Positions 9,349 through 47,300 of a stretch of 64,000 nt of DNA are shown piece after piece (positions within the stretch are counted from its first letter, which is position 1; each line of letters starts with the position of its first letter). The stretch comes from Eledone cirrhosa (lineage: Eukaryota): assembly GCA_964016885.1 (NCBI GenBank), contig OZ024740.1, forward strand, positions 231,880,001-231,944,000, given 5' to 3'. The notes below the pieces were generated by a model. That model searched no databases. It was not told the DNA's origin and worked only from the letters and a program-made list of their open reading frames with translations. A program made the position numbers and the translations under genes.

Positions 9349-9703
9349 TTAGAAAGTGAGGTTTTTTTTACAAAATGAAAAATAACCGAGGTGTCCTACA
9401 CGAGTGAAAGTATAAGGAAAACATGAAATCGATAATGCAACTGCAGTCTTTTTTAGAAAAATATATATTTATTTGGTTCCTTTATCGGTTTCGCAGTTCT
9501 TCTGATTTTCAATAATAGAGTTGAGATGGAGGGTCTGTGATCTGAGAAAAAAAATGTTCTCACATGTGAGAAAAATCACAGACCCTCCATCTCAACTCTA
9601 CTTTTGAAAAGCAGAAGAACTGCGAAACCGATACCAAATAAATATATATATATTTTTTCGAAAAAAGACTCCAGTTGCATTTTCTATTTAATCGTTCTTC
9701 CTT
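9349..9703. mobile_element. Fold-back of the CAGAT/U3-A8 HHR family in (TA)n
   Basis: Antisense arm 9349-9540 with tail and sense arm ~9562-9703; HHR CTT-TTGAAAA-GCAG(AAGAA)CTGC-GAAA-CCGA-TA at 9601-9633. Confidence 0.85.
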
Positions 9704-9720
9704 ATATATATATATATATA

Positions 9721-14319: not shown

Positions 14320-14508
14320 CGGCGGTAGATTGGCAGTATCGGTAGAGGGTCGGACACCATGCTTTCCAGCATAGTTACGTCCCTTTGCGGTCTGAGTTCA
14401 AATCCTGCCGAGGTTAACTTTGCCTTTCATCCTTACGGGGTCGATAAAATAAAGTACCAGTAATGTACTGGGTAATTGATGGCCTTGTGCCTAAAGTAGA
14501 AACAATTA
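14320..14508 (+). mobile_element. Deu/Nin SINE, full length
   Basis: A-box, B-box, Deu/Nin domain and 3' GTAGAAACAATTA. Confidence 0.85.
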
Positions 14509-15258
14509 ATGTATCGAAATACAGTTTTAATAATTTCCAAATTTTGATTTTTTTTTATCGTGTCACAAGTCAACGAAGTTGTATGAGGTATATACCTTTC
14601 TCATTGACATCAACATGTAAATGAATTGAAGTGAATGAAACCCAAACCTAGGAATATTTTGGCCCCTATTCTCCAGATATTGCATTTTAAATTTAACATT
14701 TGGATCAGACAAAAAGCAAAGGAAGTATAATGGTAGCAATTTCGTATCAGAAATGGGTCATGAACACAATTCTCCTCCGTCTTTACAAACCTGTTCCCCC
14801 TATTAGAAATAAGTTTAACATTTACAAGATACACATTTTAATAAGCAGAACTGTTTTTAATTTGTTTATTTATGTTTCTTTCAATAACCAAAACCTAGTA
14901 TTGAATTATTTCGAATCTCTTAATATATCCATCGATAATTTGTTTGTTCAGAGTGATTTTGCTCTTTCAGTAATATTCCCAATAACGTTTCCTCGCTTCA
15001 TTATGAATAAATAAATAAAATGAACAAATAAAATAAATAAATAAATACATAAAAGAAGGGGAATATTTTGAATATTCCATGACCGGATACAAGTACGACG
15101 TTTAAGCTGTTTATAGCTGTGACAACAGTAAGGCATTCAGGCTGTGTTTGTTTTCCAAAACGGAATAGTGCCAACACGTGACAAGTAAGTGCAGTTACTG
15201 AACTTTTCAAGTTATATTTCTGCAAACACGTGATGTGAGATGAAATTGTTGGATAGAT

Positions 15259-15656
15259 TGATTGCACTGTAATAATGGTTTCTCGTAAAGCCTCAAGGCC
15301 AGCAATTTTGGTAACCACAAGCAGTCACTAATAATAGGAGGCGCAAGCTCTCCTATCTCGATGTCATCTCCATAGATTCTGGTATTGAAATCCAGGATTT
15401 GGCAACGGCAATGAAGATGGAGATCATTTCTTGAGTCCATTTCGGCTGAGGCCACCGGATGACGATGATGATGAAATTGACTCCAGTGCGTGACTGGTAC
15501 TTTATTTTATCGACCCCATAAAGATGAAAGGCAAATTTAACTTCGGCGTGATTTGAACTCAGACCGTAAAGAAGCGTAACTCTATGCTGCAAAGCATAAG
15601 CGTCCGACCTTCTACTCATACTGCCAATCCCCCGCTCGTGATTGCACTGTAATAAT
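15259..15656 (-). mobile_element. Deu/Nin SINE with 18-bp TSD and an internal RTE 3' fragment (~15311-15472, + strand)
   Basis: TSD TGATTGCACTGTAATAAT at 15259 and 15639; insert translates RRKLSYLDVISIDSGIEIQDLATAM and ends in (GAT)n. Confidence 0.75.
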
Positions 15657-15828
15657 ACAAATCAAAGTTTAAAATGCGTAAGCAAAAACCATTCTTTTAA
15701 CTTTGTGTACCAACAAACAATTTTTTTTTTGTATATCACCAAATGTACTTGGGGGTGTGTTGTGCACGAATGTACATCGATATCTCCACATACAGTTACG
15801 CAAACAATCACATAAATATATATATACA

Positions 15829-16249
15829 ATATATTAATAAATGGAAACTATATTTATAAAACAATATTTATTTTATTATATATATTTCAAGGGCAACCAA
15901 GGCAAATTATGGTGCGCTTTCATCAGATAAAATACAGATTTGTTTTATAAATAAATATTGACATACACGGAAAAAAACACAACCTTAACGGTTGGAGCTT
16001 CCAGGAAGCTTTTTTCGTATTTTTTTCCGTGTATGTCAATATTTATTTATAAAACAAATCTGTATTTTATCTGATGAAAGCGCACCATAATTTGCCTTGG
16101 TTGCCCTTGAAATATATATAATAAAATAAATATAGTTTTATAAATATAGTTTCCATTTATTAATATATAGTCTATTTACTCCACTGTCTTATTGAGTGCT
16201 TTATATCAGTTATAAAAATGTTTAAGCTTGTTGAATGCCAACTAATTTA

Positions 16250-19403: not shown

Positions 19404-19455
<52 letters not shown>

Positions 19456-19462
<7 letters not shown>

Positions 19463-20003
19463 GTGAGGTTTCTTTTACAAAATGAAAAATAACCGAGGTA
19501 TCCTACACAAGTGAAAGTATAAAGAAAAAAAGATGAAATTGAAAATGCAACTGGAGTCTTATTTAAAAAAATATATATATATTTATTTGGTTCCTTTACC
19601 GGTTTCGCAGTTCTTCTGCTTTTCAAAAGTAGAGTTGAGATGGATGGTCTGTGGTTTTTCTCACATCTGTGATGGCTACTAATCAAAATTGGGTCACAAA
19701 CACAGCTCTACTAGGAATTTACACACCTTCTATTCGTCTATCACAAATAAGCTCAAAATCAACAAGATACTTATTTCAATACAGAAAGTCATTTATTTAT
19801 TTTTACTTGTTTCTTTCAATTAACAAAATCTAGTTTCGTAACGCTTCGAATCTTTAAACAGATGTGAGAAAAACCACAGACCCTCCATCTCAACTCTACT
19901 TTTGAAAAGCACAAGAAGTGCGAAACCGGTAAAAGAACCAAATAAATATATATATATTTAAAAAAATAAGACTCCAGTTGCATTTTCGATTTCATCTTTT
20001 TTT

Positions 20004-20008
<5 letters not shown>
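19456..20008. mobile_element. Inverted pair of the CAGAT/U3-A8 HHR element enclosing a captured 186-bp fragment
   Basis: Antisense arm 19456-19669, sense arm 19859-20008, insert 19675-19860 equals the reverse complement of 20451-20636. Confidence 0.9.
19899..19934 (+). ncRNA. Type I HHR, U3-A8 variant
   Basis: CTT-TTGAAAA-GCAC(AAGAA)GTGC-GAAA-CCGG-TA-AAA. Confidence 0.7.
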
Positions 20009-20088
<80 letters not shown>

Positions 20089-21319
20089 CATATTTCTTGC
20101 TTACACATTAAACAGTTTGATTTTCATCCATACAGTGCAATCAATCTCACCAACAATTTTGTTTCACATCACGTGTTTGGAGAAATATAACTTGAAAAAT
20201 TCAGCAGTGCATTTGTCACGTGATGGCACCATTCCGTTTTGGAAGACAAACAGACCCTAAATCCCATTTTGTTTACACGGCTATAAACAGCTTAAAGTGG
20301 CGTACTTGTATCCGGTCACGGAATATTCAAAATATTCTCCTGTATTAGTTTATTTATATTCTTTATTTATTTATAATATAGAAACAAATGTTATGGGGGA
20401 TAATATTCAAAGAGCAAAATCGCTCTGAACAAACAAATTATCGATGGATTTGTTTAAATATTCGAAGCGTTACGAAAGTAGATTTTGTTAATTGAAAGAA
20501 ACAAGTAAAAATAAATAAATGACTTTCTGTATTGAAATAAGTATCTTGTTGATTTTGAGCTTATTTCTGATAGACGAATAGAAGATGTGTAAATTCCTAG
20601 TAGAGCTGTGTTTGTGACCCAATTTTGATTAGTAGCTATTTTTTCAAGTTAAATAGCAATCGTTTCCTTTGTTCGTGATCCAATTAAAAATTGCAGCAAT
20701 GAGCACTTTAGTAGGAAATTTCCTCGTATCTAGGAAATGAGCATTTCTTTCTTACTTCATTCATTTCATTTCGTATATGTCCATAAGAAAGGCACGAATT
20801 TACCACAATCCCATTTTTCTCTATACAACTTTGTTTTCGGATGCCTCAACAAAACGCGAATATTGAAAAAAAACTCTATGGGATAATGATGTCGTTGTTC
20901 CTTTTAATCTCCAGGCCAACACTGGTTGAACAAATATATGAGGTGTTCTAACTATGACCATCTCGTCTTTTTAGGACCGTTTAGGAGTATAGTGTTTAAT
21001 GTGTAATTATTTTATGACCACTACTTTTAACATATGAATTAACTTAATAAATTTTGGCTCTTTTGCTCAAGTCACATTCTGTTGTTACATGTGTTTTGGC
21101 TTATCAATTTAGTCGTTCGTGGGTGTGTTTCAGAAGAAGTAGGGGGTATGAAGCTTTTATGCATCCTGGTCCAATGAACAACAGTAAAAGTGATCAATAA
21201 ATAATTATAAAACAATGCATCCTTAACAGCTTAGTCCAGTTTTCTATAACTCAAATATTTCTCTATTAACATTGTCTATATTTCAGTTATGAAAATACAA
21301 TCTTGACAGATGCAAAGTG

Positions 21320-42426: not shown

Positions 42427-42676
42427 AGATGAGGGTTTTTTTTAAATCACACGGTGAAAGTATAGGAAAAGAAATCGAAAATGCAGCTGGAGTCTTTTTA
42501 AGAATATTCATTTATTTCCTTTACCGTTTCACAGATCTTATGCTTTTCAAAAACCACAAACCCTCCATCTCAATTCTTACTTTTGAAAAGCATAACTGCG
42601 AAACCGGAACCGGTAAAGAAAATTAAAAAAATAATCTTAAAAAGGCTCCAGTTGCATTTTTCGTTTTCTTTTCCTG
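42427..42676. mobile_element. Diverged fold-back of the CAGAT/U3-A8 HHR family
   Basis: ACCCTCCATCTCAA...CTTTTGAAAAGCAT-ACTGCGAAACCGG with an inverted partner arm upstream. Confidence 0.7.
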
Positions 42677-46116: not shown

Positions 46117-46174
<58 letters not shown>

Positions 46175-46178
<4 letters not shown>

Positions 46179-46325
46179 AAAAAAAAGATGAAATCGAAAA
46201 TGCAACTGGAGTCTTATTTTTAAAAAATATATATATATTTATTTGGTTCCTTTACCGGTTTCGCAGTTCTTCTGCTTTTCAAAAGTAGAGTTGAGATGGA
46301 GGGTCTGTGGTTTTTCTCACATCTG
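46175..46325 (-). mobile_element. Single antisense arm of the CAGAT/U3-A8 HHR element (HHR at 46250-46285)
   Basis: Near-identical to 19520-19669; reverse complement reads CTT-TTGAAAA-GCAG(AAGAA)CTGC-GAAA-CCGG-TA-AAG. Confidence 0.9.

Positions 46326-47300
<975 letters not shown>

Follow-up and report, generated by a model that had tools for sequence, protein, structure and literature searches.

Within the window, a stretch of 64,000 nucleotides of the Eledone cirrhosa genome, lies a real, locally templated patch in an otherwise ordinary Penelope-like inverted pair, with its junctions taken from the assembly. The spacer of this pair, which consists of two head-to-head element leaders set in (TA)n, is probably flanking DNA that was copied in inverted orientation as a patch while two new cDNA ends were being joined. 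The observations that bear on this directly are the identity of the two arms, the asymmetry of their ends (nucleotides 214 and 152 of the leader), the local donor, a CA microhomology and the recurrence of the arrangement with other local donors (Table 1). The family-wide pattern of one long and one short arm weighs more than the single locus.

Table 1. Features of the locus and of its old relative (positions in the window)
Feature	Position	Strand	Remark
Old inverted relative of 20131-20629 (76%)	14746..15271	+	Outgroup, not donor
Left (TA)n tract	19404..19456	.	TRF; likely half of the target microsatellite
Long arm, nt 1-214 of the Penelope-like transcript leader	19456..19669	-	Ends at distal 3′ end ("with tail")
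Hammerhead-like motif, long arm	19594..19629	-	Minimal type I, read from sequence
5-nt junction patch TGATG, absent from donor	19670..19674	+	Alignment
Captured 186-nt inverted copy of 20451-20636	19675..19860	+	Final 2 nt (CA) common to right arm
Short arm, nt 1-152 of the leader	19859..20010	+	Ends at proximal 3′ end ("no tail")
Hammerhead-like motif, short arm	19899..19934	+	Private changes G54C, C60G (stem II kept), G76A (stem I weakened)
Right (TA)n tract	20007..20093	.	TRF; likely other half of the target
Donor tract	20451..20636	+	441 bp past short-arm end; break-proximal end with TG/CA microhomology

A spacer copied from the adjoining flank

The original prediction that 19675-19860 equals the reverse complement of 20451-20636 with four mismatches is exact: the alignment contains 4 substitutions (at 19726, 19744, 19833 and 19852) and 0 gaps. 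Its choice of the local copy as donor also holds, as this is the sole close match found genome-wide and the relative at ~14740-14920 is only 71% identical (measured over 14746-14923). A genome search with the 186-mer, which had been proposed as a check, gave at least three matches, as did a search with 20094-21200; all lie within the 64-kb window and correspond to the insert, the donor and the old 71-76% relative at 14746-15271. Both searches skip very common words and therefore give lower bounds, and within them no distant copy proved better than 20451-20636. A 25-mer of the insert, with up to 2 mismatches allowed, has exactly 2 matches in 3.0 Gb, the insert and the donor. By the same searches and 25-mer count the composite of arm, insert and arm is single-copy, and its presence at many loci, which had been named as evidence against a local event, was not seen.

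The alignment of the old relative extends into the donor flanks past both ends of the copied tract. Because of this, 20451-20636 is the original and 19675-19860 the copy, and the ends of the tract are therefore not element ends; we rejected a mobile-element end copied from elsewhere on the genome searches, the 25-mer count and this alignment. The relative, itself only 71% identical, agrees with the insert at three of the four insert-donor differences, which would suit neutral change on both copies and led us to reject error-prone copying or RNA editing as the origin of the mismatches. More broadly, 14480-15271 and 20131-20900 form an old inverted duplication with its halves ~5 kb apart (76% in the best part), which a SINE insertion later split and of which other genomic copies were not found.

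Both arms had been described as joined to the insert at their exact 5′ end, with (A)CA microhomology on the right. This is borne out for the right arm, where CA is shared, giving a microhomology of 2 nt at an end that the AA-CAGATG search pattern favours; the preceding A is not element sequence, full copies reading CCAGATG. On the left, TGATG sits between the 214-nt long arm and the insert. The term "exact 5′ end" is probably right for the RNA and wrong for the genomic end of the family, as many copies continue upstream. No empty site was seen at the locus, where (TA)n would hide any target duplication, and the ORF of the element is found at other loci and not at this one. Tandem head-to-tail hammerhead units, which define non-LTR retrozymes in the accessible text of 10.64898/2026.07.22.740005, were not found either; the arms form an inverted pair, and a non-LTR retrozyme was rejected for that reason.

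The junctions are known from the assembly alone. In contigs of runs X1-X4 and X5-X7 and in the raw RAD reads of X9, neither junction is spanned and no empty site appears, contigs of this kind showing presence and not absence; three other organisms' contigs and one RAD run matched only the arms and short, weak stretches. Contigs from three runs of one sample (X1-X3) cross 20099-21200 and leave the insert and its junctions uncovered. Over the donor they carry the insert alleles at 20478, 20567 and 20585, three of the four sites, with at most one other difference in ~900 nt. This picture is what an assembly artefact or merged haplotypes would predict, the insert being the donor's other allele misplaced between repeat arms. 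We nevertheless regard such an error as very improbable: in graph-based contigs the collapse of a 98% duplicate would look no different, the fourth insert allele (19852 C) is missing from the X1-X3 contigs and agrees with the old paralog, and a misplaced allele would leave unexplained both the 5-nt patch and the same architecture at two further loci, L212 and L233. The insert alleles on the donor contigs may thus be explained by collapse of the near-identical duplicate, and a second haplotype is possible.

The Penelope-like element and its leader

Both arms derive from an abundant Penelope-like retroelement (PLE) with reverse transcriptase (RT) and GIY-YIG domains and represent its 5′ leader, which contains a minimal hammerhead-like motif; a 25-nt hammerhead pattern has at least 13,686 copies in the genome. 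Autonomous copies were reached via the spacer of another pair, L209 (C17:1264692-1265326), which was rejected as a host capture because its 634 nt come from within the ORF of the element itself. In autonomous copies L266, L269 and L270/L276, nucleotides 1-214 directly precede the ORF, in the order upstream repeat, TATA, arm 1-214 and ORF. L276 is a partial tandem, running from an ORF end through the 3′ repeat region, TATAAAA, CCAGATG and arm nucleotides 1-214 into a new ORF. The frame in L275 matches the Pfam families RVT_1 at 31.2 bits (cut-off 29.6) and GIY-YIG at 29.1 bits (cut-off 22.6). L275 and L276 share the CX4CXXC linker CGRSNCGTC, and a CCHH-type motif with two cysteines inside GIY-YIG, LIYAIKCKGCNEDYIG with downstream histidines, was read by eye from the translation. 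Partial tandem and inverted terminal copies with a one-ended tail, both characteristic of endonuclease-bearing (EN+) PLEs, are present (L276; 130 of 147 pairs). In the available sections of PMC8557442 the Neptune and Nematis clades are described as having a CX2-5CxxC linker ahead of the endonuclease. Because of its RVT_1 and GIY-YIG domains, its linker and its CCHH-type motif, the predicted protein makes this an EN+ PLE, probably of Neptune or Nematis type by the definitions given there.

The autonomous element also has a long N-terminal region, a 409 aa frame with no Pfam match (L276:2863-4089, L275), which in several autonomous copies ends in another frame than the RT. Its 3′ region contains a ~340-bp unit in tandem and in variable number (upstream of the arm in L006, L009, L011, L013, L023 and L025). 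At L216 (C25:9295216) a long arm abuts apparent coding sequence, and there is no TA tract on the 5′ side.

Of 48 copies that extend upstream, 30 have TATA at -29, and there are 1,844 exact copies that start at CAGATG without the upstream C. From these two observations we infer that CAGATG is likely the transcription start of the element, whose upstream TATA contrasts with the TATA-less internal promoter of Drosophila Penelope (PMC2377424, accessible portion). The long-arm motif comprises stem I CUU/AAG, a UUGAAAA core (U3-A8), stem II GCAG/CUGC, GAAA and the palindromic stem III ACCGGU, with a predicted cut after GUA; stem II folds in the fold prediction. The catalytic core, the G10.1-C11.1 pair and the palindromic helix III of a type I hammerhead are all present, stem I is only 3 bp long, and there is no bulged base between positions 9 and 10.1. 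Rfam at its gathering score returned no match to the motif. Two forms, the commonest, cover 188 of 355 arms. The U3-A8 core variant and palindromic helix III have been described in minimal PLE hammerheads (PMC4209133, in the part available), and the motif as read fits the minimal type I hammerheads of that paper. Copies begin ~73 nt upstream of the predicted cut, and uncut RNA is the likely template, as has been reported in vitro for an anole PLE (PMC11167929, accessible text).

The stem II difference between the arms (GCAG/CTGC versus GCAC/GTGC), which the original prediction took as a sign of two different templates, is real; the two templates are unsupported. The two arms agree at all five subfamily-diagnostic sites, and their divergence is that of ordinary decay: they differ at 5 of 90 sites, by rare alleles, where ~4.4 would follow from a family average of 2.2 rare alleles in each arm. 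Full agreement at the five diagnostic sites is found in 82 of 106 pairs, against 20% of 5,000 random pairings. The GCAC/GTGC form was counted in 10 of 13,686 copies; by eye, the other nine lack the right-arm haplotype and belong mostly to an older subfamily, and the form was rejected as a subfamily marker on these grounds. The right-arm changes do not all preserve structure, since G76A breaks a stem I pair. It is possible that two RNAs from one source element lie behind the arms.

Head-to-head pairs and local capture across the family

Head-to-head pairs occupy 60 of 85 unselected loci (the 85 tabulated among the first 100 listed) and 88 of 169 enriched loci, the latter tabulated out of 173 loci retrieved with three patterns that favour foreign junctions. 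A long and a short arm, with ends near 214 and 152, were seen in 130 of 147 classed pairs, a few of which may count twice, once per arm. This asymmetry is the one-sided tail of PLEs. In the anole PLE the tail spans the interval from one internal RT start site to the other, and in vitro both strands are cut and extended by the protein (PMC11167929, in the portion available); the two start sites and the two-strand cutting match the long and short pairs seen here. Among 118 long and short pairs, 17 have a complete short arm and a 5′-cut long arm. One self-folding cDNA cannot give such pairs, although a central deletion after insertion could, which weakens the argument for two cDNAs. The spacers of unselected pairs are mostly 1-8 nt overlaps or short, iterative, element-derived patches.

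Local capture is real, repeatable and rare. Host-like spacers longer than 30 nt occur in 4 of 88 enriched pairs (this locus, L212, L233 and L112) and in 0 of 60 unselected pairs, and the yield of duplications is small, with three local patches of 55-202 nt each among the same 88. The 55-nt spacer of L212 is 100% identical to a tract 85 bp beyond the long arm, in direct orientation, and has microhomologies of CTG and CA. At L233 the 202-nt spacer is 100% identical to a tract 4,170 bp away, also direct, with no arms at the donor; other copies of this spacer repeat among the tabulated loci reach 74-89% over comparable lengths. No donor was found within ~15 kb for the 65-nt host-like spacer of L112. 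The break-proximal donor end has microhomology in all three patched pairs (2, 3 and 1 nt), lengths that carry little weight.

Across 254 loci, an exact 16-mer copy within 1.4 kb was found for 7 of 25 junction segments, against 0.47 expected from a flank-swap control; about 9 of the 25 are element sequence that the lighter mask left unmasked, and the L233 donor lies beyond the 1.4-kb range. Without this locus the count is 6 of 24. With stricter masking, which hid L143 and L238, local copies were found in 4 of 12 segments against 0.07 expected. Four of the seven local matches (L143, L178, L238 and L294) consist of one arm next to an inverted copy of the flank, and these could be TA-centred palindromes of greater age. 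The route to local templated duplications put forward in the original prediction therefore recurs, L212 and L233 having different local donors, and its claim of copying during integration is supported.

Several further structures were recorded. The pair at C1:76.405 Mb, with a 190-nt spacer, was rejected as a capture, its spacer being a third arm in a locus within a 4.6-kb tandem duplication. That duplication (L150-L152, C1:76.401-76.411 Mb; 99.8% identity, three-arm insertion) is either recent or an assembly duplicate. In both pairs of L153 (C1:89.210-89.212 Mb) the host flanks of the two sides are mutual inverted copies, and one junction has four iterative repeats of the arm end. Within the window, 9349-9708, 42454-42668 and 487-740 are older pairs in head-to-head orientation that belong to the same leader family or to related ones, the first a long and short pair with a short spacer. 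A single short arm at 46172-46325 has its CAGATG joined directly to an opposed LINE-like RT fragment (46327-47086, with a similar frame in L276), possibly as a two-cDNA join or a nested insertion. TA-centred or PLE-adjacent palindromes of host-like DNA are common (9720-9819/10106-10205, 15805-16160, 518-740); some may be fold-back scars and others MITEs.

Formation of the patched pair and related systems

Under the reading that we favour, in which a flank copy patches the join of two cDNAs, the GIY-YIG endonuclease would cut both (TA)n strands, and each 3′ end would prime reverse transcription inside the RNA, one near nucleotide 214 and the other near 152. Both cDNAs would go back to one source element and extend as far as CAGATG, the start of the RNA, where their 3′ ends would share 1-2 nt of complementarity and would usually be joined directly. 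The right cDNA, ending in TG, is continuous with the right-flank bottom strand. Here its end (...TG-3′) would fold onto its own parental strand ~590 nt behind, pairing at 20451; 186 nt would be copied away from the break and, after release and the gain of 5 nt, the end would be joined to the left cDNA. Pairing at 20451 with copying away from the break would give the observed orientation of the insert and would place the untemplated patch at its far end. According to the accessible text of PMC7165422 and PMC5728401, inverted templated insertions arise in cis, from a 3′ end on its own strand, and direct ones in trans, by priming across the break.

As donors occur in both orientations, a DNA template is favoured over RNA. 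A nascent local RNA read by the RT, which the "extra template" class of R2 and known RT jumps to RNA would allow (PMC11371274, in part), is accordingly a far-fetched source: donors of either orientation are found, one of them only 85 bp off (L212), and nothing here indicates donor transcription. As the agent of the copying, the element RT is less likely than host alternative end joining or microhomology-primed repair synthesis.

The original prediction had a polymerase jump from the element 5′ end onto nearby DNA and back to a second element molecule. Its timing, during integration, is supported, its second, different template is not, and its jump-and-return form comes nearest to an account with a single cDNA, which we consider unlikely. 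In such an account the long cDNA, on reaching the RNA start, would jump to the right flank, copy 186 nt, return at CA onto its own cDNA or a second RNA-derived template and continue to nucleotide 152, where TATA would anneal at the opposite end of the target; the copying may have been done by the PLE RT. In its favour, subfamily markers agree between the two arms in 82 of 106 pairs, the sequence at the RNA start forms a quasi-palindrome (CAGATGTG/CACATCTG), and the L209 spacer, 634 nt of element ORF, indicates that jumps between element templates occur. Self-priming has been proposed for PLE inverted repeats (PMC3846280), and R2 cDNA snaps back onto cDNA or nearby DNA (PMC11371274; both papers in their available parts). 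Yet the template would be the right-flank top strand, the one that resection removes, the jump onto the donor would fall at the junction without microhomology, and the 17 pairs with complete short and cut long arms would need a later deletion.

Near-perfect 300-bp palindromes are fragile, and the patch could also postdate retrotransposition: an ordinary palindromic pair would have formed first, its centre would have broken as a cruciform, and mending would have been templated by the flank. Besides this fragility, the insert-donor divergence (4/186) is nominally below that between the arms (5/90), a contrast that rests on very few changes. Such a repair would have had to keep both ends, because nucleotide 1 is retained in both arms here and at L212 and L233, whereas overlap or a loss of central bases is seen in most direct joins; we think it improbable.

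Extending the two-cDNA reading to the group, PLEs could plausibly integrate by double priming, though we stop short of calling this probable: each cut microsatellite strand would prime at its own internal RT start, both cDNAs would run to the cap, and the host would join the 3′ ends, with occasional copying of 50-200 nt from as far as 4 kb off. If true, one scheme would cover the inverted repeat, the one-sided tail and the captured host DNA of PLEs, and this genome, with its thousands of leader-only pairs, would preserve a dated record of the process. The formation of inverted and tailed PLE structures was called undefined in papers of 2021 and 2024. This family offers thousands of short, young pairs with ends on two fixed positions, and its patched pairs record the behaviour of free cDNA ends before joining.

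As far as the accessible portions of PMC8557442, PMC3846280 and PMC11167929 go, EN+ PLEs share with this element a C-terminal GIY-YIG, the CX4CXXC linker, a terminal-repeat hammerhead, (TA)n targets and a head-to-head inverted copy with an extension on one arm only. They differ from the ORF-less, leader-only pairs seen here, which stop at a TATA-defined start and have a tail of 62 nt, compared with 30-40 in EN+ PLEs. Host DNA captured between pLTRs is reported from Adineta (PMC3846280, available sections), whereas here the source of such DNA could be located next to the insertion. A literature search that took in few subscription papers and no supplements found no tracing of captured DNA in PLE pairs to the flank and no twin-priming proposal for PLEs.

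Templated insertions of L1 are shorter than 250 bp and mostly originate no more than 15 bp from the site (10.1101/2024.08.27.596794); L1 also shows local inversions and joins between cDNAs (PMC11702581, PMC13526784; all three in the parts available). The likeness extends to non-element genomic DNA of <250 bp copied in, two cDNA ends joined by microcomplementarity and inversion of the target flap. The L1 donors are typically within 15 bp, whereas those here are 85 bp, 441 bp and ~4 kb away, and, unlike in L1, reverse transcription from both primers here would begin within the RNA, and the same 152 nt are present in both cDNAs. R2 snap-back is similar in that, ahead of 5′ junction formation, DNA synthesis is primed by the 3′ end of the cDNA, more often on cDNA than on nearby target DNA (PMC11371274, accessible text); that system is engineered, uses rDNA in human cells and involves one cDNA, in contrast to the natural insertions with two arms described here. 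By-products like the single locus are thus familiar from L1 and R2, and the family-level pattern is the more useful result.

Pol-theta repair and SD-MMEJ likewise produce inverted copies in cis and direct copies across the break, with short microhomology, AT-rich context and iterative patches (PMC7165422, PMC5728401). Copying of flanking DNA, direct or inverted, as in Pol-theta insertions, was found at this locus, at L212 and L233 and in the 16-mer test. Pol-theta tracts are typically 3-30 bp and near the break (PMC7165422; both papers in their accessible portions), whereas those here are 55-202 nt and come from up to 4 kb away. We therefore rejected filing the insert as a Pol-theta templated insertion on its size and distance (186 nt, 441 bp off), although it works like one.
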